A DNA stretch of 32,000 nt from Opitutales bacterium (GTDB lineage Bacteria; Verrucomicrobiota; Verrucomicrobiia; Opitutales; PNEW01): the NCBI GenBank assembly GCA_965219535.1, contig CBDCNV010000001.1, forward strand, positions 450,001-482,000, written 5' to 3'. Each line of letters starts with the position of its first letter. The first letter of the stretch is position 1. This document shows positions 4,586 through 32,000 of this stretch, in pieces. The translations under genes and the position numbers were made by a program. The notes below the pieces were generated by a model. That model was not told the DNA's origin and searched no databases. It was given only the letters and a program-made list of their open reading frames with translations.

Positions 4586-4755
4586 ATGACATAAGTGCTT
4601 ATGTGAATATGCGTAAAAGCGGTAATGCGGGAAGAGAGATCTTATTAATTTAAAATGAATACTATCGACTACCGAGGACGTAATCCGAGATCCCTCCGGC
4701 CGGCAATCGTAACAGTCGACAATTACTTGTATTATTGTAAAACTTGAGGGCATTT

Positions 4756-6102: not shown

Positions 6103-6104
6103 TA

Positions 6105-6189
6105 CAATTGCGGATTGATGGATACAAGATAAACTTTGAAATAATCGTTAGTATCAATCCGCAATCCAAGATTGGTATTTCGCAATCGA
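6105..6189. repeat. Heptamer-family inverted pair between convergent wzt and the GT2
   Basis: Perfect 12-bp inverted repeat TTGCGGATTGAT (6108-6119) / ATCAATCCGCAA (6153-6164). The right side continues as five in-phase units, CAATCCG CAATCCA AGATTGG TATTTCG CAATCGA (6155-6189), ending 1 nt before the GT2 stop codon. Confidence 0.8.
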
Positions 6190-6190
6190 G

Positions 6191-7123
6191 TTACACGGGC
6201 TTTTTGCTATAATTTCCCCATTGTTCTTTCAGGGACAGACCTTTTGGGACTATTTCTTCCCGAAAACTTTTAATAATTTCCGCCTGCCTGTGGGGCGCGA
6301 CCCATTTGAGAAATTTTATATCAAGCCAATTTATCAGTCGCAGGCGCATTTTTTCCAGACCCGAGAGGGGAAAATGTTTTTGACGCAATCCCTTAATGAA
6401 ATATTCGAGTGTATAAATTCTCAACGATCGCCGAGATAAAAAAAACGGTCCTGGTCGTGATGCAAGGACATGAATCATTTCCCGATAACGCGCGAGTCCA
6501 CCGGTATTCGTTTTAGTGTTTGAGTAGTCCCGGTTTAAAGCGATAAACGCAGGGAAACGTTGTCCTTTCATCCCACTGAGAAATATTCTGCCAAACCATT
6601 CGTAGTCCATTGTCCAAAATAAATCATCGCGTATCGGTGCTATTGAGTTGAGAACTGAACGGCGGAAAAAAAATGTCGGTTGGACAATGAAATTATGCGA
6701 ATAGAGATAACGGTTGGAGACAGGGTTTTCCGTAAATAAATTAGGACCTAGGATATTACCTAAGGTATCCATGTCGAGTGCATCACCGTATAAAAAATGA
6801 AGTTCAGGATCAGAGGAAAACGCCTCCGCAACACTTTTAAATATCCCTGGCAAATAAGAGTCGTCAGAGTTAATCCAAGCTACAATATCGCCGCTGCACT
6901 CGCGAAATCCCCGATTAATGGCATCTACCATGCCGTGGTCAGACTCTCGGATCCACATCAGCTGATTCTTATACTTTTCAATTATTTCAGGGGTACGATC
7001 AGTAGAATTACTGTCATAAACTAATAGTTCAATCTCGGTGCCTTCCTGATTGAGGACACTTTTTATCGTATCCTCGATAAATGCATCTTGGTTGTAGGTA
7101 GGGATGATTACGGAAATTTTCAT
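6191..7123 (-). CDS. Glycosyltransferase family 2
   Basis: MKISVIIPTYNQ..SNSTDRT..WINSDD (DxD-type) is the GT-A family 2 signature. The ORF track start at 7153 adds 10 aa; ATG 7123 gives the usual GT2 N-terminus. Confidence 0.8.
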   Translation of the reverse strand: MKISVIIPTYNQDAFIEDTIKSVLNQEGTEIELLVYDSNSTDRTPEIIEKYKNQLMWIRESDHGMVDAINRGFRECSGDIVAWINSDDSYLPGIFKSVAEAFSSDPELHFLYGDALDMDTLGNILGPNLFTENPVSNRYLYSHNFIVQPTFFFRRSVLNSIAPIRDDLFWTMDYEWFGRIFLSGMKGQRFPAFIALNRDYSNTKTNTGGLARYREMIHVLASRPGPFFLSRRSLRIYTLEYFIKGLRQKHFPLSGLEKMRLRLINWLDIKFLKWVAPHRQAEIIKSFREEIVPKGLSLKEQWGNYSKKPV

Positions 7124-7201
7124 TTTAGATAACAACACTACAAATAACCTCACCCTTGGAATCAGCCCGAAGATTCCTTAGAGAGATCAAAATTTCCACT
7201 T

Positions 7202-8224
7202 TTAATCTACTGATTTAGAATCTGTGCCGGAACGCGCTTCTTTTTTCGCCAGTTCATAATCGTGAGCAGTCATTAATTCAGCTAGTTCTTTCATCCGTGT
7301 TTCAGGTTCCCATCCGAATTTATTCTTCGCTTTACTATAGTCACCCGCGAGGATCTCTACTTCAGATGGACGTAGAAAGCGTGTATTCTTTTCGTAATAA
7401 TCGCGCCAATCGAGATCTAATGATAGGAAAGATGCTTCTAGAAACTCTTCGACGCTATGTGGTTCACCGGTTGCCAGTATATAATCATCAGCTTCGTCTT
7501 GTTGTAGCATCTGCCACATACCCTCAACGTATTCTTTGGCATACCCCCAATCTTTCTTGGCGTCCAGTGAACCCATTGTAAGCTTATCCTGAAGGCCCAC
7601 CTTAATGCGTGCAGCCGCTTGCGTTATTTTACGGGTGACAAAATTTTCTCCTCGACGTGGCGATTCGTGGTTAAACAGGATTCCGCAACAGGCAAACAGT
7701 CCATAAGCTTCACGGTAATTTATGGTAATCCAATGAGCGTGAGCTTTGGCGCAAGCGTATGGTGATCGCGGATGAAAGGGGGTTAATTCCGTCTGCGGTA
7801 TTTCCGTAACTTTCCCAAACATTTCTGAAGAAGAAGCCTGATAAAAACGCGTTTTATCGATTAACCCGGAACGGCGCACCGCTTCGAGTAACCGTACTGC
7901 TCCGGTTGCTGTTATATCGGTGGTACTTTCAGGAGTATCAAAACTGATGCGCACATGGCTTTGCGCCGCAAGATTGTAAATCTCATCGGGTTGAATATTA
8001 TTCAATAGATCAAGCAGCGAACTGTAATCCGACAAATCGCCGTAATGCAGGTTAAGCAACTCCCCGTCATTCCCGTCGCGCTGACGTAGTGGGTCGATAC
8101 GGCTGCGTTCCATACTGCTCGTTCGTCGAACGAGTCCATGTACTTCATACCCTTTTTCGAGAAGTAATTCTGCCAGATAAGAACCATCCTGGCCGGTTAT
8201 ACCTGTGATTAACGCACGCTTCAT
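7202..8224 (-). CDS. gmd: GDP-mannose 4,6-dehydratase
   Basis: 340 aa. [62 protein letters not shown] and [17 protein letters not shown] are near-identical in pattern to characterised Gmd enzymes. Confidence 0.95.
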
Positions 8225-8316
8225 TATTTATATAAAATTATTAAAATTAAACTTATTGTGTCTTTTTACCAGTAACGATAACAGCTTTTAATTATGTGAT
8301 TCATGCGCTATCTCAA

Positions 8317-8351
8317 CAATCGTCAATCAGCCATCGCAAATTGACAATCGA
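8317..8351. repeat. Heptamer array, 5 units, directly downstream of the wzm stop
   Basis: CAATCGT CAATCAG CCATCGC AAATTGA CAATCGA in perfect 7-nt phase. The wzm stop codon is at 8359-8361. Confidence 0.8.
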
Positions 8352-8358
8352 ACAGGGG

Positions 8359-9210
8359 TCATATCACATCGGCAAAAGCAGGTTTCATCTTATTAAAGGC
8401 AATAAATCCGATCCAAACAAAAACAATGCTGAATCCATACAAATAGACGAGCGATGGAATGTCAGGGCTCTGTTGCCATAATAAAGTCTGACGGGATAAC
8501 TCAATAGAATGAATTAGCGGATTGAATTTTATAAACTGCCAGATGGCGGCGGGGATCTGCTTGGAAGAATAGAAAACCGCACTCGCGTAAAGCAGGGCAA
8601 GACTTAGAAAAGTTGTCAGTTGATTAATATCGCGGAAGAATACACCGAGCGCAGAAAAAATCCATGCCAGCCCGAGTGCGGTGAGGAAAAAAGGAAAAAG
8701 GATGACAGGCATCCATAGGGCGTTAATACTTAGACCTGGTCCTAAAAAAACTATTCCCATGACGACAATGGTAAGTGTAAGACAAAAATGGTATAGGGCT
8801 GTGCCCACGACGGCAACGGGAAGAACATCCAAAGGAAAAACTACCTTTTTTACATAATTTGAATGGCTAACAATAAGTGTCGGTGAGACCATGAGAATTT
8901 CCGCGAGAAACTGGTATATCGTTATGCTTAAAAAAATACCCAACCCATAATCTAATTTCGTTTCCTCTGGGCTGGAATGGTAACTTCCTTTAAAAATGAA
9001 GCCAAAAACAAAGGTATAGAGCATCATCATGAGTAGTGGGTTTAGCACTTGCCAGATACTGCCGAGATAACTTCCTTTATGTCGTGACCTGATATTGCGT
9101 AAAATTAACTGGCGCAAAAGATCCCGATAACGATAAAATCTTCCCAACGAGCTGAAGATGTTCCAGCTCGAATCAGTTTTAATCGCATTTCTGTTTATTG
9201 CCGCCTGCAT
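8359..9210 (-). CDS. wzm: ABC-2 type polysaccharide exporter permease (Wzm/TagG type)
   Basis: 283 aa with about 6 hydrophobic segments. The N-terminal YRDLLRQLILRNIRSRHKGSYLGSIWQVLNPLL motif is characteristic of ABC-2 polysaccharide exporter permeases. Confidence 0.8.
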   Translation of the reverse strand: MQAAINRNAIKTDSSWNIFSSLGRFYRYRDLLRQLILRNIRSRHKGSYLGSIWQVLNPLLMMMLYTFVFGFIFKGSYHSSPEETKLDYGLGIFLSITIYQFLAEILMVSPTLIVSHSNYVKKVVFPLDVLPVAVVGTALYHFCLTLTIVVMGIVFLGPGLSINALWMPVILFPFFLTALGLAWIFSALGVFFRDINQLTTFLSLALLYASAVFYSSKQIPAAIWQFIKFNPLIHSIELSRQTLLWQQSPDIPSLVYLYGFSIVFVWIGFIAFNKMKPAFADVI

Positions 9211-9319
9211 TTAAATATAACCCTATTTTCATTATTGAAGGCATAGCAAACAAGCTTTTTCAAGAGGGTAAAACATAGAGATCAGCACTATTGCACGCTC
9301 GCACGATACGTCCGTTTTT

Positions 9320-9804
9320 TTATTCATCATGCCAGTGAAATATATTCATTTCTCCTTTATATTGCCAATCATTGAAGTTATTTACTAATCCATGACGCAT
9401 TGGATTATTCTGCACATACTCCCACTTTTCTGAATAGCTCTCAGCACTCCGGAGTTGTCGATCCCAATAACTTTTTTGCCATATGGGCTGTACCTCGGGC
9501 TTTGCCCACCTAAAGGAAACATAAGATTTCCAATATTGGATCCATTGCGTCAGAGGTTCCACCATAACCGTTGAAGGAGCACAAAATAAGTGAATATGAT
9601 CTGGTAAAATTACAAAATTACCTACTTTCCAGGATTAGGCTGCATCCCAAACTTGTTGAATTAGGAAAAATGTTTCGTTGTTGGCATATATGTTTTTTTA
9701 CCTTTCGAGCAAACAGTAACAAATACAATATTGGAACGATTAGGAATTTCTAAAACTGGTAGATGAGCAGGATATTTACGTTTTGGGAATTCCTGATAAT
9801 CCAT
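9320..9804 (-). pseudogene. Decayed REP-associated tyrosine transposase (RAYT) / IS200-like Y1 HUH transposase
   Basis: My minus-strand translation gives MDYQEFPKRKYPAHLPVLEIPNRSNIVFVTVCSKGKK, then a frame change, then ANNETFFLIQQVWDAA*SWKVGNFVILPDHIHLFCAP (HUH motif), continuing into the 81-aa ORF ...YWDRQLRSAESYSEKWEYVQNNPMRHGLV (Y1 region). Two lesions: a frameshift that restoring one A in the A7 run (T7 on + strand, 9693-9699) would fix, and an in-frame TAA at 9635-9637. Confidence 0.7.
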
Positions 9805-9851
9805 TAATATTAAATACGGTTATAATAGTATTTAAATTAATTCCTATGGAG

Positions 9852-9871
9852 GGCCACGCGTCGTCGTGGCC
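9852..9871. repeat. GC-rich hairpin GGCCACG-CGTCGT-CGTGGCC, 48 nt upstream of the RAYT-like pseudogene
   Basis: Perfect 7-bp stem with a 6-nt loop, read directly from the sequence. It stands out in an AT-rich spacer. Confidence 0.5.
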
Positions 9872-9947
9872 GTGAAAAATGTCGTTTATATTTTATGCTT
9901 TTGTAAGATGTTGTCCTTCAGTCGGGATTCTAAAGTGGCATTCTTTT

Positions 9948-9968
9948 CAATCGACAATCGACAATTGC
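9948..9968. repeat. Heptamer array, 3 units, upstream of the RND adaptor gene
   Basis: CAATCGA CAATCGA CAATTGC, 52 nt before ATG 10020. Confidence 0.75.
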
Positions 9969-10019
9969 ACTTTGTTATTGGAAACATTCCCAATTTATAG
10001 CGTTCTAAATTATATCATC

Positions 10020-11117
10020 ATGGAACTTTTTGTATTAGCTCGTAGGTGGTTATTTGCGGCGCTATGCTCAATAGGGTTTTTGGTTTCTTTATCTGGCTGC
10101 GGGAATAGTGAAGGGGAAGATCAGCCCCCGGAATTCGCAGTAAATGTTATAGTTGTAGAATCCAAGTTAAAACCAGTTTCCGATAAGATCAATCTTGTCG
10201 CTACGCTTGCGCCCAATGAGCGGGTAGAAATACAGAACTTAATCAGTGGGGTGGTTACAGTTATACATTTTAAAGAGGGTGAAAGAGTTGAAGCAGGTGA
10301 TTTGATTTTTGAATTGGATACCCAAAAGTTGCGGGCTCGGGTAGCTGAAGCAGAAGGTACTTTTGAACTCGCTGAAATAAATCGTGAGCGATACATCAAA
10401 CTTCTCGAGAGCAATACAGTATCTCAACAGGAATTTGATCAGGCGATGTCCAGATATTCTGTTTTAAGCGCGACGCTCGCACTACGCCGTCGTCAACTGG
10501 ATGACAGCATATTACGCGCTCCATTTTCGGGAGTAGTTGGCTATCGGCGGGTGAGTCCAGGTCAGTTTATCCAGCAAGGTGAGACGATAACTACTCTTGT
10601 CGATACCAATCCTATCAAGGCTGATTTTCAAGTGCCAGAACGTTTCCTGGGCGAATTAAGGATAAATCAGGAGATAAATATCACCGTTCCCGCTTACCCT
10701 ATGGAAAAATTTTCTGGAAATGTCTATTTTATAGCTCCTGAGGTGGCGCAAGAAACGCGCACCGTCTTTGTTCGCGCCACTATCGATAATACAAGTGAGC
10801 GTCTTAAACCAGGGATGTTTGGCAATCTTGAGCTTGTCCTGCAGGTAAAAGAAAAAGCACTTGTCATACCGGAGTCAGCGTTGATTACACAGGGTAATAA
10901 GATACAGGTAATGGTCGTAGGTAGCGACAATACGGTGCAGGTAAATTATGTTACTACTGGTTTGCGACTTGAAGGTGAAGTAGAGATTACGGACGGATTA
11001 AATATCGGTGAAAGAGTTATCACCGAGGGGCATCAGAAAGTTGAGTCCGGGTCCAAGGTAAATCCCTTATCTGTGGAAGCCGGCCGGCCTTCTTTGTCTG
11101 CCTACATTGATGGATAA
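10020..11117 (+). CDS. RND efflux periplasmic adaptor (membrane fusion protein, HlyD family), lipoprotein
   Basis: From ATG 10020 there is a signal peptide with lipobox LVSLSGC, followed by barrel-sandwich/coiled-coil content (GDLIFELDTQKLRARVAEAEG..., LRAPFSGVVG, KPGMFGNLELV). The ORF track start at 9879 adds 47 non-signal residues that overlap a repeat array. Confidence 0.85.
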   Translation: MELFVLARRWLFAALCSIGFLVSLSGCGNSEGEDQPPEFAVNVIVVESKLKPVSDKINLVATLAPNERVEIQNLISGVVTVIHFKEGERVEAGDLIFELDTQKLRARVAEAEGTFELAEINRERYIKLLESNTVSQQEFDQAMSRYSVLSATLALRRRQLDDSILRAPFSGVVGYRRVSPGQFIQQGETITTLVDTNPIKADFQVPERFLGELRINQEINITVPAYPMEKFSGNVYFIAPEVAQETRTVFVRATIDNTSERLKPGMFGNLELVLQVKEKALVIPESALITQGNKIQVMVVGSDNTVQVNYVTTGLRLEGEVEITDGLNIGERVITEGHQKVESGSKVNPLSVEAGRPSLSAYIDG

Positions 11118-11130
11118 TAAAATAATTTGC

Positions 11131-11195
11131 GATTGTCGAAATGCGATTGTCAATTGATAGGATACAGGATGCACGATGCAGGATTCATGATCCAT
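11131..11195. repeat. Two blocks with 7-nt periodicity in the adaptor-pump spacer
   Basis: Block 1: GATTGTC GAAATGC GATTGTC (11131-11151). Block 2, after a 9-nt phase break: GATACAG GATGCAC GATGCAG GATTCAT GATCCAT (11161-11195). Confidence 0.7.
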
Positions 11196-11273
11196 ATTGT
11201 ATTACCTCGCGACTACCTGCAGGCATAGTTCCTCGATTGCGAGCCAGCGACTGGTGGCTAACTTGGTATATAA

Positions 11274-14200: not shown

Positions 14201-14519
14201 CGCAATGGAAGCGATAAAGATATCCGGCAAAATCCGCTTTCGGCCGATCCTCATGACTACTTTTTCTACGATTGCCGGTATTCTTCCGATTGCCATTGGA
14301 TTTGGAGCGGGCGCGGAAAGCCGTCGACCCCTCGGTGTAGTTGCCGTAGGAGGTCTCATAACAAGCACAATATTCACGCTCCTCGTCGTTCCCGTAGTCT
14401 ACTCTCTCTTCGGTGAACTGACCCGGAAATTACGCAGTCGCTCTGATGAAGAAATTCCGCAAAAAGTAACCGGTGGTACCGTGCCCTCGGTTTCTACCCC
14501 GGAGTCTAAAGAGAACTGA
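11274..14519 (+). CDS. RND efflux pump inner-membrane permease (AcrB/HAE1-like)
   Basis: 1081 aa. N-terminal IRRPVLASMMSLGLILFGLIGISRLPVRELPDIDPP, 12-TM architecture with two large periplasmic loops, and conserved VVDDSIVVLENI and NSILLVEFAN motifs. Confidence 0.9.
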   Translation: MKLPEICIRRPVLASMMSLGLILFGLIGISRLPVRELPDIDPPIVNVNTIYPGASAEVVETEITERLEEVINTIEGIKTLTSESREQVSSITVQFVLARDIDLAAQDVRDRVARAREDLPEEINEPIVAKQDGDARPFLWIALYGERYSTLKLSDIGEEILKDPLQTIRGVSNVILGGEKRFAIRFWLDSNKMTAHGITVLDVEAALRSQNLELPSGRVENRERELAIQTLGELKTVDEFNRLVIREDGDNLIRLQDIGYAQVGVEDERSVARYNSKPAVGLGVVKQSKANTIDVAKGIKAELERLKPWIPDGVEFFIAYDESTFVEKAIEEVWRTLFIAFILVVITIFIFLRNVRSTIIPSVAIPVAVTGVFAVLYLLGYSINIVTMMAMVLTIGVVVDDSIVVLENIYRHVEEGQKPMQAAIEGMKEIVFAVIATTVALVAVFLPMAFQTSLTGRLFIEFAIALAGAVIISSFVALTLTPMISARVLRPVNNEKHGVLFKLFERWINKLSRYYERALAWSLNHRPTIIVASLIVVGLSGLIFQQLERDFLPQEDKGRLFCLAIAPEGSTSEYTDRMVRQMEVIMHETPGVGGFFSAVALGRGGPGKASQGLMFVRFLDRKDRDLSVQDIVEGPNGVGARFFNEVEGAISIPILPKAIGGGWGQSFQLVLQHDDLNVLSNYSFELANRLRKEGFLANVRSQFQLDKPELRINIDRNRAGVLGVSIRDLSRTLQILFGGQDLSQVQRGGKEYDVIVQLDRESRLTPSDIERLYIRNTEGELIQLSNVVNLQPGGGPNTIYHYNRSRSATVEGTPMGIPLGTAIDRAMAIADETMPDGFRYTWAGDAKNMKESTANIYWIMVLALIVVFMVLAAQFESILHPLTVIVAVPLAAFGAFGALYLLGWVNHFGEMFFGWANYAPDPPGFAKIMTNIIPRIPAMNINLFSQIGFLLLIALATKNSILLVEFANQQMAKGKDAMEAIKISGKIRFRPILMTTFSTIAGILPIAIGFGAGAESRRPLGVVAVGGLITSTIFTLLVVPVVYSLFGELTRKLRSRSDEEIPQKVTGGTVPSVSTPESKEN

Positions 14520-14520
14520 T

Positions 14521-14548
14521 TCGATTGCCGATTCAATCGATATTTTTG
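14521..14548 (+). terminator. Minimal heptamer hairpin plus T-run between convergent RND pump and TPR genes
   Basis: TCGATTG (14521-14527) / CAATCGA (14534-14540) form a 7-bp perfect stem with loop CCGATT, followed by TATTTTTG. It starts 2 nt after the pump stop and overlaps the TPR gene stop codon at 14533-14535. Confidence 0.55.
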
Positions 14549-16035: not shown

Positions 16036-16090
16036 GATGATTTCTGCTTCTATGAAAATTTCGGTTTGAATGAAGGATATTCCAACATTG

Positions 16091-17626: not shown

Positions 17627-17632
17627 AGGTAT

Positions 17633-17688
17633 GATTGTCGATTTTCGATCGCCGATTGTCGATTGTCGATTGTTGAATTAGGATTCGC
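17633..17688. repeat. Heptamer array, 8 units, abutting the xylB start codon
   Basis: GATTGTC GATTTTC GATCGCC GATTGTC GATTGTC GATTGTT GAATTAG GATTCGC in perfect phase. The xylB ATG (minus strand) ends at 17626, 6 nt away. Confidence 0.85.
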
Positions 17689-17800
17689 TGCTTGTCGGCT
17701 GTAGTCCCACTACCTCAGGTAATATAGCACGTGATGACGCGCATCCCTCATTTAGAAATAACAGTATTCATAATATCATTCGACTACCGAGAGGAAAGTT

Positions 17801-17835
17801 CGACATTCGTCATTCGGCAATCGGAAATCGGAAAT
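17801..17835. repeat. Heptamer array, 5 units, inverted partner of 17633-17688, overlapping the GT1 3' end
   Basis: CGACATT CGTCATT CGGCAAT CGGAAAT CGGAAAT. The reverse complement of 17809-17829 matches 17640-17660 at 17 of 21 positions. The array encodes the GT1 tail ...NFRFPIAE and its stop codon. Confidence 0.8.
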
Positions 17836-19093
17836 TGTCACGGCCTTTATAGTTATTCACAAAATCTTCTAAAAGTTTTACGGCTTCTTTTCCTGCATCT
17901 TCCCTGGCGAGTTCGCGTGCGAAATATTCGGCGTTTTGACGAAGCTTTTGATCGTTTTCAACCCTAAGGACGTACTCAGTCAGCAATTCCGGCCATTGTC
18001 TTTTACTTATCTTAAGTCCAACCTCCATGCGACTGGTCTCTTTAGCCCATAAAAATTGATCGGCTATATGGGGGATGATAATACCCGGTTTTCCAGAATG
18101 CCAAACTGAAGCCGTTGTTCCAGCACCACCATGGTGAATTACCACCGAGGCATGGCGAAAAAGCTGATCATGAGATACATGGTCAATGCATTTGATATTA
18201 GGCAGATCCTCTTCAGGAGATAGTTTTGCCCAACCGCGTTGAATGATAATTTTTTTATTTTTCGGCCAGCGACTGAGAAATCGATGCATCTTCTTTTCTC
18301 GATCATCGAAAGTGACACTGCCAAATGTAATTACGGGCACTTCATTGCCCGCGCAGAAATCCTGGAGCTCCTTTTCTAATTGTGGATCTTGAGCGGACTG
18401 CCAACGGAGATGGCCGATGAATTGATATCGCGGATTGATCCGGGCATTCGTGGGAAGTAGATTTTTACTTACTGCTACAAGCGCGAGATCAGCCGGAGCG
18501 AATATAAACTGTTTGATGGAGGGTGTTTTACCCTCCTTGATACGCGTGGCCAGAATTTTATTTAACGTTCTGCTAATCAGCGCGTTTGATACTTTCCATA
18601 AGGTGGTATTCCAAAATTGCTGCAGCTTTTTTGGAAAAATTATGAGAGAAGGAATATCATGAGGTGGATAGTCAGGTGAAGGTACGATCAAATGACTAAA
18701 ACAGACAACGGAAAAAGGGACATTGTATCGATCAGCTGTCACTTTAAAATGGGGGAAAAGATAGGAACAGACAAAGAGGTCTGCATCCTTCAAAGCGATT
18801 TTCAGACGTTCTAAAGTTTCATCGAGAAATGGCATTCCGCTGCGATAAATGATTTCCAATTGTTTTAACGGATGCCGCGTGCGAACCAGCTTCAGCATGC
18901 ACGAGGCGAAAATTTCCTGATCCCAATCCGGAGGTATGTATATGTATTCCAACTCGGCGCGCTCTATCTCACCCTGAAAAAGTGGAGCGGCAGCTAAGCG
19001 AACGGTATGTCCAGCTTCGCTCAGCGCTCTACCCAAAGCGATTACCGGATAGATATCACCTGTCGATCCTGCGGAGTTTAGTAAAACGCGCAC
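17810..19093 (-). CDS. GT1-family UDP-glycosyltransferase (MGT / sterol-glucosyltransferase-like)
   Basis: 427 aa. N-terminal GSTGDIYPVIALGRAL and C-terminal VIHHGGAGTTASVWHSGKPGIIIPHIADQFLWA (UDP-sugar binding signature). The last ~8 codons and the stop lie inside a heptamer array. Confidence 0.75.
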   Translation of the reverse strand: MRVLLNSAGSTGDIYPVIALGRALSEAGHTVRLAAAPLFQGEIERAELEYIYIPPDWDQEIFASCMLKLVRTRHPLKQLEIIYRSGMPFLDETLERLKIALKDADLFVCSYLFPHFKVTADRYNVPFSVVCFSHLIVPSPDYPPHDIPSLIIFPKKLQQFWNTTLWKVSNALISRTLNKILATRIKEGKTPSIKQFIFAPADLALVAVSKNLLPTNARINPRYQFIGHLRWQSAQDPQLEKELQDFCAGNEVPVITFGSVTFDDREKKMHRFLSRWPKNKKIIIQRGWAKLSPEEDLPNIKCIDHVSHDQLFRHASVVIHHGGAGTTASVWHSGKPGIIIPHIADQFLWAKETSRMEVGLKISKRQWPELLTEYVLRVENDQKLRQNAEYFARELAREDAGKEAVKLLEDFVNNYKGRDNFRFPIAE

Positions 19094-19299
19094 TTTTCAA
19101 GTTTCGATTCTTGGATGAGGGTTGTCGAGCTTTGCTCTAGGAAGCCGATGGGAAATATCGCTCATGAAAAGGCGAGTCTCGGGTGTCGATTGAATGTAAA
19201 TCTTTAGTCACATCACCTGGACGACGACTTTTCGGTCCTGTGATAATTTTATTTATTTTCCACTTGAAAAATCACAAGTAAGGATTGAACTTTAGGTAC

Positions 19300-22200
19300 A
19301 TGCCTGGCGCTGATACGGAATTCGTACATCTTCATCTCCATACTGATTATAGTCTTCTCGATGGGGCCTGCCGTATCGACCGACTGATGGGTCAAGCGGC
19401 TGACTTCGGCATGAAGTCTCTCGCCATTACCGATCATGGTAATCTTTTCGGACTCGTCGATTTCTATCAGACAGCGAAAAAATTTGAAATAAATCCTCTC
19501 CTCGGTTGCGAAATTTATTTAGTGAGCGGAAGCCGTCTGGAGCGGCCTGAAAGAGGTCACCACATTTATTATCACATGGGGCTTTTGGCACGTAACTATA
19601 CTGGATATAAAAATCTTACAAAATTGGTATCCGATGCTCACATCAGGGGATTTTACTATAAACCGAGGACGGACATCGAACAACTTGCCGCCCATGCCGA
19701 AGGACTTATCGGGTTTACCGGTTGTTTACAAGGAGTCGTTCCCCAGATGCTCCTTCACGATCAATTTGAGGAAGCGCGTGAATGGATCGGACGCTTCATT
19801 GATATTTTTGGAAGAGAAAATTACATAGTTGAAATACAGGATCACCACATACCTGAGCAGAAAAAGATTATACCCTTGCTGCTTAAGCTTGCCGAGGAAT
19901 TTAAACTTAAAGTTGTTTGCACTAATGATGTGCATTTCGTCAAAGAAAGTGATTCTGCTTCACATGACGTGCTGCTTTGTATCCAGACGGGTTCGAAAGT
20001 TGAAGATGAAAAACGCATGCGATTCGCCAATGATAACTTTTATCTCAAGACGGGCGAAGAAATGGCGCATTTATTTAGCGAACTTCCCGAATCTCTTGAA
20101 AATACGAGGGCGGTGGCTGAAATGTGCGATGTGAAGCTACCTCTTGGTGAAAATCACTATCCGGTTTTTAAAATGGCACCTGAAATTCAGGCGCGTAGCA
20201 AAACCAACGCCGGCTATTTGAAAGAACTTTGCATTAATGGACTGCAAAAACGGTACGAAGTCGATTACCATAACCCGAATAAGTACAAACCCAAAGCGAA
20301 TGAAGATGCCGATTTAGCGAACACGCTGATCGAGCGAATAAACCACGAACTGGAAGTCATCGATAATACAGGCTACGTCGATTATTTCCTGATCGTTCAA
20401 GATTTCATCAATTGGGCCTTGAATCAAAGCATACCCGTAGGGCCGGGCCGCGGTTCGGGTGCCGGCAGTCTTGTCGCTTATCTCACGCATATTACCGACA
20501 TTGACCCGATACGCTTCAAGCTACTTTTCGAACGCTTTTTAAATGAAGATCGTATCTCTCCACCTGACTTCGATATTGATTTTTGTATGCGTCGGCGAGG
20601 TGAAGTTATTGAATATGTCCGCAATAAATACGGCAATGATTGCTTTGCTAATATTATTACCTTTGGAACCTTTGGAGCGAAGATGGTTGTACGCGATGTT
20701 GCGCGTGTTCTCGATATTCCATACGGAGAAGCGGATCGCATTGCGAAAATGGTGCCGGACGATCTTAAAATCACTCTCGATGAATCTGTCTTAAGGAGTT
20801 CTGAGTTACAGAAGGAAGTTGAGAACAATGAACTGGCCCGGAAAATAATCGAGCATGGTAAAATCATAGAAGGAATGGTGCGAAATACTGGTACGCATGC
20901 TGCCGGTGTTATTATCAGTGATCGGCCGCTTACGGAGTATATACCACTCACTCTTCAAGAAGGCGCGTTAACTACTCAATACCCCCAGCTTCCCGTGGAA
21001 AACCTCGGGTTGCTTAAGATGGACTTTCTCGGACTTAAAACGCTGACCGTAATTGCCGATGCAGAGGAAAACATACGTCTAACAGCTGATGAAAATTTTG
21101 ACATCAATAATATCCCTTTTAATGATGAAAAGACATTTCAACTTATCGATGATGGATTAACAACTGGAGTATTTCAGTTAGAGTCTGGCGGAATGCGCAA
21201 CCTTTGTCGGCAGATTAAGATCTCCAGCATCGATGAAATCGTTGCCCTTATTGCTCTTTATCGACCCGGGCCAATGGAATGGATCCCGGATTACATCCGC
21301 GGCAAACAGGACCCCTCGACGATAAAATTCCCCCATCCCCTTCTCGAAGAGATTTGTAAGGAGACTTACGGAGTCATGGTTTACCAGGAACAGGTAATTG
21401 AATCAGCTAAAGTTATCGCGGGCTATACCCTCGGGGCTGCCGATATTCTGCGCCATGCCATGGGTAAGAAGAAAGTCAGTGAGATGAAAAAGCAGCGCGT
21501 TGTGTTCGTGGAGGGCGCCTTTAAAACTCACGGCATTGAAAAGAAAAAAGCTTTAGAAATTTTCTCTATTCTCGAAAAATTTGCCGGCTACGGGTTTAAT
21601 AAATCACATTCCGCTGCCTATGCGATCCTCAGCTATCGGACCGCTTACCTGAAAGCAAATTATTCGGTACAGTTCATGGCCGCGCTTCTCTCCAGTGAGC
21701 TCGGTAATGCCGATAAGGTTGCCTTCATTATCGATGAATGTGGCGCTTTAAACATTCCCGTGCTTGGGCCTGATACCAACTTATCCCGGCAGAATTTTAC
21801 TCCTGTTTATGATGAAGCTACAGGAAAGGGAAGCATCCGGTTTGGCCTCGCCGCGATGCGGGGGGTGGGTGATGCGGCCGCAAGCAAAATTATAGAAGAG
21901 CGAGAAAGCAATGGAGACTATCATGACTTTCATGAATTTATTTCCCGAATAGATTCACGATCAGTGAATAGGCGTGTTTTGGAATGCCTTATAAAATCAG
22001 GTGCCTTTGATTATTCAGGTGATGATCGGGGAGCCTTGCTCGAAGACATCGATGGTATTTTGAATGAGATGGTTGAGCTCCAACGTGATCGCGAGCGCGG
22101 GCAGGAGTCATTTTTTGATTTATTGGATTCGGCAACAGAGCCCCCTGACGGCTCCAATGGGAGTAACGGACACCATGGTAATGGAAGATTAAGAACAAAC

Positions 22201-22884
22201 ACCGTTATGCCTTTGTTCGAAAAACTTAAGTATGAAAAAGAACTGCTTGGTTTCTATGTCTCGGGACATCCGATGAATGGATATAAGGATCTCGATATCG
22301 CTATTGATACGATCAAGGATAATAACTTACTTACTCTTGAAGACCGTTCATATTTTCGTCTCTGTGGCGTCGTTTCGAATATTTCAAAAAAAATCTCAAG
22401 GAGGGATAAGCGCCCCTGGGCTATCCTAAGCCTGGGAACCAGACATTCTACTTACAGCATTAACATCTATGCTGAGGCTTTTTCTAAATACAGTGAAATG
22501 CTTGTCAATGGAGAGCTATTGATGGTAACCGGCATTGTTTTGAAAAGGGATGATGATGTTCGATTGAGCGCTGATGTTATACACCCGCTTGATCCCAGTA
22601 TACCTGATGTAATAAAAAAGATTTGCTGGATAGTACGACCCGATGCGCAAGCTGATGATTTTCTTGATAAACTGAGGAACATAATCGGCGACAATTATGG
22701 TGATACTCAAAATGAAATAGGTTTTCTCGTGGATGATAATCATCTTGTTGTCACCAATATCGCAGCCTCGCTGACCTGGAAAGTGCGGCCTGACGATTTT
22801 TTAAAACTTCGCCAACATCCCGCTGTTGTTAGTGTCGAAATCCAGTCTAACATGCCTTATTCGAATGTAAATCACCCCTGGTAG
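19300..22884 (+). CDS. dnaE: DNA polymerase III alpha subunit
   Basis: About 1195 aa. PHP domain [15 protein letters not shown], polymerase core [14 protein letters not shown] and DFDIDF, and [10 protein letters not shown]. The ORF track starts at TTG 19285; ATG 19300 is an equally good start. Confidence 0.95.
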
Positions 22885-22893
22885 ATAATTTTC

Positions 22894-22921
22894 GAATTCC
22901 GATTTTCGATTGACGATTGAC
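22894..22921. repeat. Heptamer array, 4 units, directly downstream of the dnaE stop
   Basis: GAATTCC GATTTTC GATTGAC GATTGAC, preceded by a degenerate GATAATTTTC that overlaps the TAG stop at 22882-22884. Confidence 0.8.
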
Positions 22922-23103
22922 CCTAACGGTATCATGAGGGTGTAGCGACATCTTCCTTTCCAGAGGGTAGTATATTTCTGAGATCACTGAAGATAATCCG
23001 TGGATTGAGATAAAATTATCCTTGATATCGGCTACCTCTACTGAACCTGTAAGGCAACACCCTGCAACGCGTGGCCCGCCAACATGTATATTGCATTCTT
23101 TAT

Positions 23104-23152
23104 CAATCGACAATCGGCAATCGAAAATCAGCAATCCGACATCGACAATTGT
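23104..23152. repeat. Heptamer array, 7 units, inverted partner of 22894-22921, abutting the nitroreductase stop
   Basis: CAATCGA CAATCGG CAATCGA AAATCAG CAATCCG ACATCGA CAATTGT, ending 1 nt before the stop at 23154-23156. The reverse complement of 23109-23129 matches 22901-22921 at 19 of 21 positions. Confidence 0.85.
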
Positions 23153-23153
23153 C

Positions 23154-23972
23154 TCACGCGAGATCAAAGCCGTGATTGTTTAAAAAATCTTTGAATTCCG
23201 GCCGCTCGGGTAATGATAATTGTCGTGCCACATTTTCGGACCAACTGCAGCATTCAAGCACCCCATATTTGTCAGTATGGCGCTGCTTTTCTGGCGGGAT
23301 GGCATGCCGTTCATGCCTGCGTTTATCGTAATCCTCAATTTCAGCAGCGAGATCAGTATCTTTGTATCGATCTTGATGAATAATTGTTGATGGGGGGAGG
23401 CGCAGAGATACATAACCCTCGGATAGGGGCCAGCCGATGCAAAGACCGCAAATAGGGTAGACCCCGGGTGGTAAATCCAGAAGTTCACAAATTGTATTCA
23501 TGCGGTCTCTAATTGCGCTGATTGGACAGCAACCCAGGCCGATTGATTCCGCGGCAAGGATAAGGCTCTGCATTGAAAGAGCTGAGTCGATTGTCGCATT
23601 AATGAAACTATCAATGTTGTTGTTCTCGTATCCATGACCCCGCCAACCAGCGATCCTTTGGTTGCGTCTCATGTCAGCGCAAAAAATAAGGAAAACAGGT
23701 GCCTTACCTTCCCATCCGCCAATGACTTCACGAGCGTCTGGATCTCTGACAACAATTATTGAGTACTGTTGTAAGTCCGATTTCGAAGGTGCCGACTGAG
23801 CACAGGCGAGCAACACCTCCAAAAGCTCATCGTCTATGGGTTTATCCTCGTATTTTCGCTGTGTGCGGCGTGAGAGGATATCGGCAACTGTCCCCTCATT
23901 ACACATTTCAGCTCCGACTTCTGTTTTTATTCCAAAACGTTCTTCTATAAGTTGGGATATTTTTTTCATCAT
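23154..23972 (-). CDS. Nitroreductase family protein
   Basis: 272 aa. SRRTQRKYEDKPIDDELLEVLLACAQSAPSKSDLQQYSIIVVRD is a typical nitroreductase-fold N-terminal FMN-binding segment. Confidence 0.8.
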   Translation of the reverse strand: MMKKISQLIEERFGIKTEVGAEMCNEGTVADILSRRTQRKYEDKPIDDELLEVLLACAQSAPSKSDLQQYSIIVVRDPDAREVIGGWEGKAPVFLIFCADMRRNQRIAGWRGHGYENNNIDSFINATIDSALSMQSLILAAESIGLGCCPISAIRDRMNTICELLDLPPGVYPICGLCIGWPLSEGYVSLRLPPSTIIHQDRYKDTDLAAEIEDYDKRRHERHAIPPEKQRHTDKYGVLECCSWSENVARQLSLPERPEFKDFLNNHGFDLA

Positions 23973-23990
23973 ATAATAAGGTGAACGGAC

Positions 23991-24004
23991 GATTGACGAT
24001 TAAA
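23991..24004. repeat. Short heptamer array (2 units) upstream of the nitroreductase start
   Basis: GATTGAC GATTAAA, preceded by a degenerate GAACGGAC. Confidence 0.55.
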
Positions 24005-24052
24005 CTACAGAGTTGTCCAACCTGTGTCTTGCCCAGTATGTGGCTATCTTAA

Positions 24053-24087
24053 CATTCGACAATCGAAAATCTGCAATCGTCATTTGA
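24053..24087. repeat. Heptamer array, 5 units, downstream of the rnhC stop
   Basis: CATTCGA CAATCGA AAATCTG CAATCGT CATTTGA, ending 4 nt before the rnhC stop at 24092-24094. Inverted relative to 23991-24004. Confidence 0.8.
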
Positions 24088-24091
24088 TTGG

Positions 24092-25060
24092 CTATTTACT
24101 TGCCACAGGTAAACCAAGAACTTCGCGGGCAGTTTTAAAATGAAGTTTTGCGAATTCACCTAGTGCGTTGGGACCTTTGTTGGCGACTATCTTTTGCGCT
24201 TGTTTTTTAACCTCTGCGGAGGCCCCTTTTTTCAGTGTTTCCCCCGCTTTTTTAGAGAGAGTATCCATTTGTCTAACAAATTCAGCGCGGGCGCAAATAG
24301 AAGCCGCAGCCACTACTGGATCCCCCTCAGCTTTCGTTCGCATGCGTAATTCAAAGTCTTCATCTTTAATCATTTTCTGAACTAAAGGTTCTTTGCTGAA
24401 CTGATCCAGAAGACCCCAGCTTACAGGTTTCTTTTTTAGAGCATCTTCAAGCGCGCGCGCATGCAACCATGCCATGAGACGGTTGAGATTGGCGCGTGGT
24501 TTAGACATCAATTGGTTATATTTATTCATTCCGCAGTAGGCGGTTTGGACAACTACACCGCGTGTACTGCGGATTATCTTTTCTATGTCGATGACGGAAG
24601 AGTCTGTCATTCTCTTGCTATCTTTAACCCCTTTTTTCAACCAATCACGTACCATATCACCATCTGCAATGACACAGCAGGTAATAAGGGGACCAAATAA
24701 ATCACCTTTACCCGCTTCATCCAAGCCAGCGTGAGGTTCAAACCAATCTGGGTTGTAAAATTCTTCGTAACCCAGGCGTGGTTCACCGGTGATTTCTGCT
24801 TCCAGCGTATCGCGCACAAAATCTTCCGTCCCCTTGCCCTGGATTACTAATTTGCCGCTTTCATATGCGACAATGTTAACCTTTTCATGAGTGGCTTTGA
24901 ATGCGAATCGTGCGTAATCCACAGCGTAATACTCCCAAACTCGCTGATCACAAATATGCTCCAACTTTTTCATTTGCTCATCATTGAGCTCAATGGTGTA
25001 TAAAGTGAGCTTTTTAGGTTCGGTGTCTTTACTTAGAGCTTTTTTATTTTTCTTCGCCAT
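24092..25060 (-). CDS. rnhC: Ribonuclease HIII
   Basis: 322 aa. RNase HII/HIII catalytic motif GLDEAGKGDLFGPL preceded by an N-terminal extension of about 100 aa, which is the RNase HIII architecture. Length fits HIII rather than HII. Confidence 0.8.
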   Translation of the reverse strand: MAKKNKKALSKDTEPKKLTLYTIELNDEQMKKLEHICDQRVWEYYAVDYARFAFKATHEKVNIVAYESGKLVIQGKGTEDFVRDTLEAEITGEPRLGYEEFYNPDWFEPHAGLDEAGKGDLFGPLITCCVIADGDMVRDWLKKGVKDSKRMTDSSVIDIEKIIRSTRGVVVQTAYCGMNKYNQLMSKPRANLNRLMAWLHARALEDALKKKPVSWGLLDQFSKEPLVQKMIKDEDFELRMRTKAEGDPVVAAASICARAEFVRQMDTLSKKAGETLKKGASAEVKKQAQKIVANKGPNALGEFAKLHFKTAREVLGLPVASK

Positions 25061-25130
25061 TGATTATCTTTTAACCCCAAAATATTATTACAATCAATCT
25101 CCAACTTTCATTAATATACCTAAACAAGAC

Positions 25131-26183
25131 GTGAAGTTCAGGCTGGAAAAAGATATAACACTATTTCAGAAAAAGCTGCAACACTGGTATGCTAAACACC
25201 AGCGTGACTTGCCCTGGCGCCGTAACCCAACGCTCTATAAAACCGTGGTTTCAGAGTTTATGTTACAGCAGACACAGGTGGACACGGTTCTCCCTTACTT
25301 TCATCGGTGGATTTCAAATTTCCCTGATTTTGATTCAATTGCACGTGCAAATGAAGAGGTCGTAGTAAAAAACTGGGAAGGTTTGGGGTATTATTCACGC
25401 GCGCGAAATCTTCACCGTGTAGCCCGTATATTAACAAGTAATGAAAAGATTCCTTCTCGCGCAAAGGAGTGGGAGCAATATCCTGGTATCGGACCGTATA
25501 CTGCAGCGGCCATTTCAAGCATAAGTTTTCACTACCCAGCGGCAGTACTTGATGGGAATGTCATTCGTATACTGACACGTCTCACAGCGGACGCCACGCT
25601 GTTCAATGACAACAATTCTGCCATTCGAAAACTTACGCCCTTGGCAAATAAACTTCTCGACGTAATAAATCCGGGGACACACAACCAGGCAATGATGGAG
25701 TTAGGTGCGACGGTATGTATGCGTTCGAAACCACGTTGCTCAGTATGTCCCGTTCACTCTTTTTGCTCTGCAGGTAAACGTGGAGATAGGGATCAATTCC
25801 CTCGTTTTAAGGCTAAACCGCCACAGCGCCTGAAAATTAATCGTGTATGGATACAGAGGAATGGCGCTCTTCTCTTGCACAAAGCGTCCTCTAAAGCGAA
25901 ACGTCTAGCTGATTTCTATGAGCTACCTTCAGCAGAAGGATTTGTGAAAACCCTTACGCGGAAAGACCGGTTGGTGATAAAAAAGCGCGGCATTAGTAAT
26001 CAGTATATCGAGGAGAGGATTTATCGGGTAAAATCGAACGCTAAAATTACACAACTTGTTAGATCGTCTCCTGATCTTCACTGGATACCGGCATTCAAAA
26101 TGAATGCGATTATCCTTTCAGGTCCCCACCGCCGTTGGATCAACCAATTGATTGCGGATTTCGGATGTCGGATTGCGGATTGA
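25131..26183 (+). CDS. mutY: A/G-specific adenine DNA glycosylase
   Basis: LPWRRNPTLYKTVVSEFMLQQTQV, GLGYYSRARNLH, DGNVIRILTRL, the 4Fe-4S loop C-x6-C-x2-C-x5-C (CMRSKPRCSVCPVHSFC) and a C-terminal NUDIX-like domain. GTG 25131 avoids the overlap with rnhC. The last ~11 codons and the stop lie inside a heptamer array. Confidence 0.85.
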   Translation: MKFRLEKDITLFQKKLQHWYAKHQRDLPWRRNPTLYKTVVSEFMLQQTQVDTVLPYFHRWISNFPDFDSIARANEEVVVKNWEGLGYYSRARNLHRVARILTSNEKIPSRAKEWEQYPGIGPYTAAAISSISFHYPAAVLDGNVIRILTRLTADATLFNDNNSAIRKLTPLANKLLDVINPGTHNQAMMELGATVCMRSKPRCSVCPVHSFCSAGKRGDRDQFPRFKAKPPQRLKINRVWIQRNGALLLHKASSKAKRLADFYELPSAEGFVKTLTRKDRLVIKKRGISNQYIEERIYRVKSNAKITQLVRSSPDLHWIPAFKMNAIILSGPHRRWINQLIADFGCRIAD

Positions 26184-26184
26184 A
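26150..26184. repeat. Heptamer array, 5 units, covering the mutY 3' end and stop
   Basis: GATTGCG GATTTCG GATGTCG GATTGCG GATTGAA, preceded by CAATTG (26145-26150). The mutY TGA at 26181-26183 lies inside the last unit. Confidence 0.85.
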
Positions 26185-26335
26185 AAGAATGCTAAAGGTG
26201 GAACGCGCTGTCCCTAGCGCGTTGGTATTAAACTAGAATATATTATAGCGTGCTGGGGAACCAGCCGTTGCGAAGGCTATAGCGGTCAGACAGCCCGGCT
26301 CCACCAAGTGTAATGAGATTAGGGGTATTCTAAAT

Positions 26336-26370
26336 CAATCTGCAATCCGAGATCCGCAATCCGCAATTGA
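26336..26370. repeat. Heptamer array, 5 units, inverted partner of 26150-26184, downstream of rpsU
   Basis: CAATCTG CAATCCG AGATCCG CAATCCG CAATTGA. The reverse complement of 26335-26363 matches 26155-26183 at 26 of 29 positions. Confidence 0.85.
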
Positions 26371-26384
26371 ACGAATCGATTCAT

Positions 26385-31950: not shown

Positions 31951-32000
31951 TTTCAATTTAGAGGCTGTCGGGCTCTGCCCGCGGTAAGATGTAGGATTGC

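Follow-up and report, generated by a model that had tools for sequence, protein, structure and literature searches.

Introduction

Dispersed arrays of tandem heptamers have been known since 1990, the year of the short tandemly repeated repetitive (STRR) sequences, and, among the long simple repeats of bacteria, they are the most frequent. Mazel et al. are said to have described the STRR heptanucleotides in 1990 in heterocystous cyanobacteria (Calothrix, Nostoc). We know of no function for dispersed heptamer arrays, and to our knowledge pairing and polarity of the arrays have not been emphasized for STRR. Here we analyze heptamer arrays with the unit GATTGNN in a 32,000-nt stretch of DNA from an uncultured Opitutales bacterium (Verrucomicrobiota; GenBank assembly GCA_965219535.1, contig CBDCNV010000001.1, positions 450,001–482,000), which as a whole is called the window; coordinates given without a locus label are window positions. 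An earlier description made from the letters of this DNA, referred to below as the original prediction, had listed 13 arrays placed at gene 3′ ends in a fixed orientation and had taken them for an undescribed class of element.

The closest described repeats were reported by Rehm et al. (2015; PMC4692102), who counted GGGAATC arrays in two xanthomonads (186 and 183) and GGGGA(C/T)T arrays in Nostoc PCC 7120 (89). The units of these arrays are variable, (GGGANTN)n, and occur in 2–26 copies. The xanthomonad arrays are 89–93% intergenic and under-represented between divergent open reading frames (ORFs); the arrays adjoin stop codons on the coding strand, and 70–75 convergent array pairs per genome could form stem-loops. 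Array position is 83% conserved between species, with changed lengths. No function was assigned to the repeats, and a rationale based on G-quadruplexes (G4) was proposed (Rehm et al., 2015).

Heptanucleotide long simple sequence repeats (LSSRs) were treated by Mrazek et al. (2007), here as relayed by MacGregor (2015; PMC4679880). The latter study describes TAACTGA direct repeats in marine Beggiatoaceae, cyanobacteria and Bacteroidetes, which abut start codons in an A/C-rich orientation, and a Nostoc preprint reports eight units of GAC(C/T)AAT overlapping a start codon (bioRxiv 10.1101/2022.06.06.494920). Another kind of dispersed element, the repetitive extragenic palindromic (REP) sequences and bacterial interspersed mosaic elements (BIMEs), is found in enterobacteria and pseudomonads (Di Nocera et al., 2013; PMC3733652).

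Results

GATTGNN Heptad Arrays in the Window

Confined to one lineage, the arrays of the window form a family of dispersed heptanucleotide simple-sequence repeats whose unit is GATTGNN. Both strands were scanned for runs of 7-nt units with at least 4/5 core matches to GATTG in each unit. This yielded 17 arrays of at least two units, where 100 Markov simulations gave an expectation of 3.5 ± 1.9, and 7 arrays of at least three units, where 0.13 were expected. Among periods 4–12, period 7 alone was in excess, with 11 matches in the 32-kb window versus 47 matches across 752 kb of DNA from other Opitutae (approximately 2 per 32 kb). The pentamers GATTG, CGATT and CAATC were among the most enriched in non-coding DNA (4.4- to 4.8-fold), and Tandem Repeats Finder also called period-7 arrays, at 9948, 11159, 17633, 17814, 22907, 23104, 26150 and 26336. 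Within the unit the GATTG core is constant and positions 6–7 are free to vary, being mostly TC, CG, AC or CC in the window.

Each of the 13 arrays of the original prediction was recovered at its listed coordinates, together with its six opposed array pairs, which have cores of 6, 33, 48, 112, 151 and 182 nt. All six pairs have the form (GATTGNN)n–core–(NNCAATC)n, with no instance of the reverse order. The elements of the window are the following:

6105–6189, no strand: paired element between the convergent genes wzt and GT2; left arm 6105–6119 (AATTGCG GATTGAT), core 6120–6152, right arm 6153–6189 of CAATC units; the arms lie 3 nt past the wzt stop and 2 nt past the GT2 stop.
8317–8351, minus strand: single array of five units, 8 nt past the wzm stop, reading GATTG in the wzm sense.
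9946–9968, minus strand: single array AATTGTC GATTGTC GATTGAA in a divergent (5′) spacer, with the 5′ side of a transposase-like pseudogene on one side and the start of the membrane-fusion protein (MFP) gene on the other, 53 nt away.
11131–11195, plus strand: array 14 nt after the MFP stop, of GATTG type at 11131–11158 and of GATGCAN type at 11159–11195, without an inverted partner.
14521–14540, no strand: minimal palindrome TCGATTG-ccgatt-CAATCGA in the spacer between the genes for the resistance-nodulation-division (RND) pump and the tetratricopeptide repeat (TPR) protein; it overlaps the stop of the TPR gene, and TATTTTT follows.
17633–17835, no strand: paired element between the tandem, minus-strand genes GT28 and FGGY; arm 17801–17835 covers the GT28 stop, the core is 17689–17800, and arm 17633–17688 ends 6 nt before the FGGY start.
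22894–23152, no strand: paired element between the convergent genes for dnaE and a nitroreductase; left arm 22894–22921, core of 182 nt, right arm 23104–23152 with a terminal CAATTG.
23991–24087, no strand: paired element between the tandem, minus-strand genes rnhC and nitroreductase; arm 24053–24087 lies 5 nt past the rnhC stop, the core is 48 nt, and the short arm 23991–24004 lies 18 nt before the nitroreductase start.
26146–26370, no strand: paired element between the convergent genes mutY and rpsU; left arm 26146–26184 (last mutY residues and TGA stop), core of 151 nt, right arm 26336–26370.
31960–32000, plus strand: hairpin module GCTGTCGGGCTCTGCCCGCGGTAAG followed by GATTGCG GATTTGC, approximately 15–50 nt past the RNase P RNA gene; the array continues beyond the window end.

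The GATGCAN-type units (GATACAG GATGCAC GATGCAG GATTCAT GATCCAT) are a third heptad type and directly continue the GATTG array at 11131–11158. Across the heptad types, GAT is the constant part of the unit.

As had been stated, the arrays are not CRISPR arrays: the 7-nt units stand head to tail with no spacers, versus repeats of 24–48 nt with unique spacers. No Rfam family matched the arrays or the nested hairpin described below (window and five metagenome loci), no cyanobacterial HIP1 site occurs in the window, and a literature search on the exact heptamers returned no relevant report.

Arrays Adjoin Gene Ends in One Orientation

Gene boundaries for the placement counts were corrected using gene calls on public contigs. 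The window is 91% coding, and 13 of 13 arrays fall within a fraction of 11.8% made up of non-coding DNA and of positions no more than 35 nt from a 3′ end (naive p ~1e-12). All arrays are non-coding or lie over stop codons, and their coding overlap is limited to the last codons of the TPR, GT28 and mutY genes (three arrays); the earlier claim that arrays are intergenic or touch last codons only holds for all 13. An array overlaps or lies within 15 nt of 12 of the 25 gene 3′ ends, and at all 12 it reads GATTG in the sense of the gene. These are the eleven ends already named, with rpsU added as the twelfth (array at 15 nt).

The orientation had been presented as constant relative to the terminating gene, which is borne out at 12/12 ends, but it is not independent of the pairing. 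The rule arises because the elements have a fixed polarity, (GATTGNN)n…(NNCAATC)n, and adjoin gene ends: a paired element reads alike on both strands, and a gene ending beside it therefore meets GATTG first. Siting at 3′ ends is likewise general, with the exception of the array 9946–9968. The outermost unit is preferentially AATTG, and the element ends are AATTG…CAATT; of the CAATTG copies that had been called outermost, that at 11151 is internal.

Our sample of the genome of the window strain comprised 49.3 kb (the window and its flanks on the same contig) and the orthologous stretches of relatives. Within the 49.3 kb, half of the convergent spacers (4 of 8) have arrays, as do 5 of 19 between tandem genes and 1 of 7 between divergent ones. 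Right-hand arms stand close to starts before FGGY and nitroreductase.

At 26150–26183 array units supply the end of MutY with its TGA stop, and at 17810–17835 the last GT28 residues; in a related strain (L208) a 31-nt deletion fuses dnaE to its array (1204 versus 1194 aa). As 7 is not a multiple of 3, gain or loss of a unit shifts the reading frame. GATTGA units provide TGA stops. For annotation, MutY, GT28 and DnaE have C-termini that the arrays rewrite, and ORF callers are led astray.

Comparison With Described Repeats

The window family resembles the repeats of Rehm et al. (2015) in its exact 7-nt units, its non-coding bias, its scarcity in divergent spacers, the adjacency to stop codons, the convergent pairs, and copy-number variation at kept positions. 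All positional features of that kind of repeat are present in the window arrays, and only the G4 potential is missing. In another register (GGGGATT)n is (GATTGGG)n, and the Nostoc array therefore is itself an array of the GATTGNN unit. The window family differs in having no G-tracts or G4 potential, a verrucomicrobial host, AATTG as the outermost unit, swapped cores and a nested hairpin. The earlier view that the element class is undescribed is thus contradicted by published arrays of the same layout. We regard it as highly probable that the window arrays belong to the STRR/GGGGATT/GGGAATC kind of repeat; what is new is a verrucomicrobial, non-G-rich family of this described and functionally unexplained kind. 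As it shows the full Xanthomonas/Nostoc layout without G-tracts, the family separates that layout from the G-quadruplex explanation.

STRR and LSSRs, with some 100 or more dispersed copies, are tandem heptamers like the window family, mostly non-coding and polymorphic in copy number. Several unit families per genome are a further feature of both, here GATTGNN, GATGCAN and GAACAGT. They differ in their unit sequences and in the phylum of their hosts. TAACTGA repeats (MacGregor, 2015) are likewise intergenic, patchily distributed and composed of 2–6 units, and their adjacency to starts is matched by the right arms before FGGY and nitroreductase. In contrast to the window arrays, which mostly follow stops and are often paired, in the genome described there they lie mostly upstream of starts as single direct arrays (one indirect in 170).

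The window family is similar to REP/BIME elements in being extragenic, dense and hairpin-forming, and in lying between convergent and co-transcribed genes. A REP, however, is a single palindrome of 20–40 nt with a GTAG or CGTC tag and is linked to a REP-associated tyrosine transposase (RAYT). The palindromic unit and the tag do not apply to the window arrays, and a RAYT link is not supported for them. Their arms are tandem heptads, the elements measure 20–260 nt, and the cores are unrelated; a GTAG is present only on the 3′ side of the small nested hairpin, which is the wrong side for a GTAG REP. The original prediction had separated the arrays from classical REPs, and on these features it was right.

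The Correia elements and neisserial intergenic mosaic elements (NIMEs) of Neisseria are miniature transposable elements with inverted repeats (MITEs) or mosaic intergenic elements. They have in common with the window elements the inverted arms, a variable core, presence/absence polymorphism and gene-end sites, and multi-copy families comparable to theirs occur in two of the viral-classified loci described below (L012 and L438). The window elements differ in that target-site duplications are lacking, cores are single-copy in 49 kb, and the arms consist of slippage-prone heptads.

Folding of Paired and Single Arrays

The proposal that arm pairs can fold as hairpins stands for four of the five long pairs (z = −3.0 to −9.1) and is weak for the fifth, nitroreductase/rnhC. 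Arms were paired in the predicted RNA structures of 6100–6192 (−23.8 kcal/mol, z = −3.15), 17627–17840 on the minus strand (−63 kcal/mol, z = −3.8) and 22885–23156 (z = −3.0). In 26140–26375 (−107.8 kcal/mol, z = −9.1) the core extends the stem and the whole element becomes one long hairpin. The arms of 23985–24092 (minus strand) pair in the minimum-energy structure, with a z of −1.1 that is not significant. The mini-palindrome region 14516–14545 gave −6.7 kcal/mol (z = −2.3).

The single array at 8310–8358, folded on the minus strand in the wzm sense, pairs with itself through G·U pairs (−18.1 kcal/mol, z = −4.9). Given G·U pairs, CGAUUG is self-complementary, and a single array can therefore self-fold in the GAUUG sense; 11 of 12 arms fold better as GAUUG than as CAAUC. 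The fold of 11131–11195 was not significant (z = −0.28).

Variation Between Strains and Persistence in Relatives

The window is contained in a metagenome contig from ENA (L001; 1 mismatch in 18,224 nt). A second locus, L002, is 99.9% identical over 18 kb, and one of its five differences is a gain of two CAATCGA units at 9948 (+14 bp). The only coding indel between L002 and the window is a 3-nt in-frame indel (GGC) in wzm at 8545–8547. The strain set consisted of the window and seven orthologous loci of approximately 97.5% identity, several of them on contigs of 1.8–5 Mb, of which at least two are circular and measure about 5 Mb. Complete circular contigs of the lineage include ERZ26694896 ctg118059_20.32x_c (4.98 Mb) and ERZ25766727 ctg362391_21x_c (5.05 Mb). 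Across these strains the coding DNA shows few small gaps at most, and the spacers differ in four ways.

Changes by exact multiples of 7 nt were seen in the left arm of the FGGY/GT28 element (−7 and −21 nt), the right arm of the dnaE/nitroreductase element (−7 nt) and the rnhC arm (−7 nt). The dnaE/nitroreductase spacer exists as three alleles: a 24-nt minimal palindrome (TTCAATTGCGGATCGACATTTGTC) in L124, L210 and L211, an element with the 182-nt core in the window, L208 and L209, and one with an unrelated core of ~115 nt in L212/L213. Cores are replaced at other loci too. In L212/L213 the FGGY/GT28 element has another core and lacks the right arm, and at mutY/rpsU the core in the seven other strains is unrelated to the 151-nt core of the window; there, in the region orthologous to 26184–26335, another heptamer is repeated in them, (GAACAGT)n, the copy number n being 1, 6, 11 or ~14 (L208, L210, L124 and L212). 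The fourth difference is a 27-nt hairpin insert in one arm. The presence/absence polymorphism foreseen in the original prediction thus exists among strains of ~97.5% identity. The element at 14521–14540 is nearly invariant in the eight strains, and the window departs from the others by one G/A change in the right arm. Cores showed no similarity to one another or to other sequence examined.

GATTG arrays are kept in three more distant relatives, L538, L539 and L540, whose RNase HIII is 93, 88 and 83% identical (94, 82 and 73% nucleotide identity). Arrays lie directly past the stops of rnhC and dnaE (both in L538 and L540), GT28 (L539, as a pair) and rpsU (L539), and the array at the dnaE end persists in L540 despite a changed gene order. 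New gene ends carry arrays as well, namely FGGY in L539 and a helicase gene in L540. In these three loci, 10 of 10 arrays within 35 nt past a stop are in the sense orientation, so that the orientation rule, for which a check in relatives had been suggested, extends to them; three further arrays are right-hand arms and two lie in divergent spacers. Array position is conserved well beyond the turnover of array sequence.

No GATTG array was found in another 44 loci of Opitutae totalling 752 kb, in L541 (68%) or in Oceanipulchritudo coccoides (L542); L541 carries another heptamer, (GTCAGTG)8. With arrays present down to ~73% identity and absent from these loci, the family is restricted to roughly the genus level. 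The eight strains and the relatives at 94, 82 and 73%, with differing alleles at the same gene ends, amount to a natural experiment.

Pair Polarity Is Shared by Unrelated Heptads

Polarity of pairs was examined in viral-classified contigs of IMG/VR (loci L004–L123, L231–L350, L351–L418 and L419–L537). Among the matches listed, adjacent pairs of GATTGNN ×4 arrays within 400 nt were 23:0 in the order GATTG…CAATC, and three control cores also had the G-richer arm first (GTTAG 13:0, GTGTA 9:0, GGAAT 15:0). The four cores with more G than C thus total 60:0 among the matches listed, and 66:0 with the window. The strict placement of the G-richer arm at the 5′ side across unrelated heptads needs explaining.

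The number of GATTGNN ×4 matches in the viral contigs (at least 120) was rejected as a sign of specific enrichment, since searches with control cores matched to it in composition returned at least 120, 68 and at least 120 matches. The raw GATTG count therefore shows only that heptamer arrays in general are common.

One IMG/VR locus (L012) holds two copies of an element 8 kb apart, which are 94% identical exactly from AATTG to CAATT and have unrelated flanks; L438 and L357 likewise hold several copies with shared cores. Such multi-copy elements with sharp ends, which often begin directly after a TGA, leave room for a process that may copy or move heptad elements in general.

A Tentative 3′-Hairpin Role Weighed Against Neutral Accumulation

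The account that we favor, and consider rather probable as a whole, combines the known heptad repeat kind with a function as 3′ hairpins. Its second part, a hairpin function at the ends of transcription units, is put forward tentatively and falls somewhat short of an even chance. Arrays gain and lose whole 7-nt units between near-identical strains, which is what slipped-strand mispairing would produce, and they survive only in non-coding DNA abutting stops or over last codons. Convergent pairs, with the G-richer arm 5′ and the C-richer arm 3′, enclose a non-conserved and replaceable core; given this fixed polarity, a transcript of either strand, or single-stranded DNA, can form a long imperfect hairpin. 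The hairpins may act as REP/BIME-like elements at the ends of transcription units or between cistrons, where they would block 3′ exonucleases or read-through. They might also insulate convergent and tandem neighbors, the gene ends here being without canonical hairpin-plus-U terminators. Single GATTG-sense arrays can also self-fold through G·U pairs, and the fixed polarity may shield the C-rich arm from unpaired exposure to Rho.

Several observations weigh against this account. The putative terminator or stabilizer role is read from position and predicted folding. No U-tract follows the hairpins, with the sole exception of 14521–14540. Unit losses in one arm are unmatched in the other and whole cores are swapped; exact pairing is therefore weakly constrained. 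The arms do match each other at positions 6–7 (0.56 versus 0.36), a difference that is significant but confounded by genome composition. Self-pairing through G·U depends on the CGAUUG sequence and cannot account for the identical polarity of other heptad families. Divergent or 5′ regions hold three of the arrays (9946 in the window, 15981 in L539 and 13259 in L540). In IMG/VR, among the matches listed, single arrays are enriched near ORF ends (20% and 14% versus 4.6% of random positions), and their orientation bias, apparently 41:14, vanishes to 23:16 once stops within arrays (GAT TGA) are excluded and gives no support. Finally, the arrays are dense in the window, at 19 per 100 kb, and near 0 in the 17 kb of flanks on the same contig, which contribute one small array only; the window is therefore a dense patch, and a genome-wide density cannot be extrapolated from 49 kb.

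Of the other explanations the most resilient, which we nevertheless consider unlikely, is that the arrays are a neutral or selfish by-product: slippage arrays would accumulate where they are harmless, 7 nt being the favored unit of polymerase slippage in many bacteria, and polarity would reflect how inverted copies form. The hypervariable, unequal arms and the replaceable, mutually unrelated cores are consistent with this, and the rarity of arrays in promoter-bearing divergent spacers relative to convergent ones (1/7 versus 4/8) is what purifying selection alone predicts. Heptamer arrays of any core are moreover abundant in environmental contigs, and Rehm et al. (2015) could assign no function to the repeats that they studied. 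A by-product would not be expected, however, to be kept at the dnaE, rnhC and GT28/FGGY ends to 73–82% nucleotide identity, even after a change of gene order, nor to lie 0–15 nt from a stop codon in place of being scattered through the spacer, and the strict 66:0 polarity calls for a dedicated explanation.

Mobility, a Common Class and Protein Binding

Somewhat less likely again is a mobile or copied hairpin of MITE or REP kind, AATTG-(GATTGNN)n-core-(NNCAATC)n-CAATT, of which the arrays would be the terminal repeats. The presence/absence and core-replacement alleles among strains of ~97.5% identity would suit such an element, as would the sharp-ended L012 copies, the shared cores of L438 and L357, the preference for AATTG at the outermost unit, and the occurrence of the nested hairpin module in ~6 unrelated contexts. 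A transposase-like pseudogene also lies 130 nt from one array. Against these stand the absence of a core common to the six pairs or repeated in 49 kb of the window genome (multi-copy conserved cores being present elsewhere, in L012, L438 and L357), and the variation by multiples of 7, which is a mark of slippage and not of transposition. No target-site duplication was seen at filled versus empty dnaE/nitroreductase alleles or at the two L012 copies.

The pseudogene (9320–9815, minus strand) is IS200/RAYT-like and of the Y1 (HUH) type, interrupted by one stop and one frameshift, with the HUH motif DHIHLF and the tyrosine in WEYVQNNP; an 81-aa ORF (9320–9565) is its C-terminal piece. Its repaired translation matched Pfam Y1_Tnp weakly (E = 0.007, below the family threshold). 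A GC-rich palindrome, GGCCACG-N6-CGTGGCC, stands at 9852–9871, 37 nt upstream of the pseudogene, with conserved flanks ACGGCCACGACG..GCGTGGCCCTCCA, and a second copy lies ~6.8 kb left of the window start (L215, ~1853–1872). This palindrome is the likelier cognate repeat of the pseudogene and a candidate true REP of the genome, distinct from the heptad arrays. A tblastn search with the pseudogene protein found no homologue in 5.5 Mb of array-bearing loci. A RAYT link of the arrays is not supported, as the pseudogene adjoins another palindrome and has no homologue in those loci.

A broader proposal, to which we give a small chance, is that heptad-armed hairpins form one cross-phylum class under a single unrecognized rule and mechanism, with the G-richer array 5′, sharp ends, replaceable cores and a covarying nested mini-hairpin. 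If true, it would point to dedicated formation or mobilization (strand-specific snap-back synthesis or an as yet unrecognized single-stranded-DNA enzyme), or alternatively to a selected anti-Rho or 3′-end RNA function, and under both readings the published G-quadruplex rationale would lose its relevance.

That the arrays are binding platforms, GAT(T/G)G every 7 nt offering multiple sites to a DNA- or RNA-binding protein (a nucleoid protein, regulator or translational factor, for instance), appears quite improbable. An analogue would be the ToxR/H-NS site on TTTTGAT heptads of the Vibrio cholerae ctxAB promoter, and binding proteins have been proposed for the heptads of Beggiatoaceae (TAACTGA) and Nostoc. 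The conserved GATTG with free positions 6–7, the arms abutting the FGGY and nitroreductase starts, and the head-to-head polarity, which would suit a dimeric binder, agree with it. On the other side, no candidate protein was identified, copy number varies freely among strains, and the same polarity and layout for unrelated cores elsewhere argue against one sequence-specific binder.

That the arrays are G4-forming repeats or canonical intrinsic terminators is scarcely credible, and both candidates were rejected: the layout is that of the published G4 repeats, and 14521–14540 fits hairpin-plus-T as the only consensus terminator at a gene end, but GATTGNN units (GATTGTC, GATTGCG, GATTGAC, GATTGCC) have no GGG run, so that G4 cannot form, no T-run follows the other hairpins, and consensus hairpin-plus-T sites are not enriched in the window (18 versus 16.1 and 20 versus 16.4 in shuffles).

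A Nested Mini-Hairpin Module

The insert found in arms at two loci of related strains has the consensus GGAT-GTCGGGCTTTGCCCTCGG-TAGC, its hairpin also being written GTCGGGCTTTGCCCTCGGTAG, and a variant is present in the window at 31960–31993. Its copies, a dispersed hairpin mostly in or beside heptad arrays and in GATTG polarity, are these:

31960–31993, plus strand: copy matching the covariance model with 32.5 bits.
19117–19150, plus strand: copy with the stem variant GAGC-TTT-GCTC in the GT28/dnaE divergent spacer; covariance-model E = 2.5e-4.
4663–4696, minus strand: weaker match to the covariance model.
L124, 8670–8703: copy in a related strain.
L212, 12013–12046, minus strand: copy in a related strain.
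L216–L230: copies in metagenome stretches.

An exact-match scan of JGI metagenomes found the module in 15 stretches, representing ~6 distinct contexts with a GC content of 39–51% and without homology to the window. These copies are nearly always in or beside GATTG/GATGT heptads with the same polarity (exception L217/L221), and the density of GATTG arrays on the module-bearing contigs is 14 per 100 kb. The covariance model gave no convincing copy in other Opitutae loci. The 4-bp stem is 97% paired, with compensatory changes in three of four pairs (variants GGGC/GCCC and GAGC/GCTC). In an alignment that was fitted to the model, stem covariation was higher than in each of the slid controls and, on four of five measures, than in every one of 500 shuffles.

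Genomic Context

Pfam scans and gene calls on public contigs agree with the gene list of the original prediction: the window encodes a wzm/wzt O-antigen-type cluster, an RND pump with its adaptor, a TPR protein, an FGGY kinase, a GT28 glycosyltransferase, dnaE, a nitroreductase, RNase HIII, mutY and rpsU. The best relatives of DnaE and RNase HIII that carry organism names are, among the matches listed, all Verrucomicrobiota of the class Opitutae (Opitutales, Puniceicoccales, Oceanipulchritudo; 55–69% identity). A cyanobacterial source of the DNA was rejected on these protein matches and on the lack of HIP1 sites. A DnaE search of genome contigs gave Opitutales and Puniceicoccales at no more than 64% identity among the matches listed.

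Left of the window, a tRNA-like sequence, judged by eye, is located ~7.1 kb from the window start (L215, ~1510–1585). It lies in a convergent spacer of 722 nt with a CTTCGT hexamer array, the GC-rich palindrome and no heptad arrays. To the right, ~110–480 nt beyond the window end (L214, ~8170–8550), we noted the gene rpsT (S20) and an ORF of 31 codons whose very basic product resembles the small ribosomal protein bS22; both are absent from the gene calls of the contig in this strain. Just inside the window end, an RNase P RNA of bacterial class A was found at 31552–31946 on the plus strand (225.8 bits), and the 138-aa ORF at 31540–31956 on the minus strand is therefore spurious.

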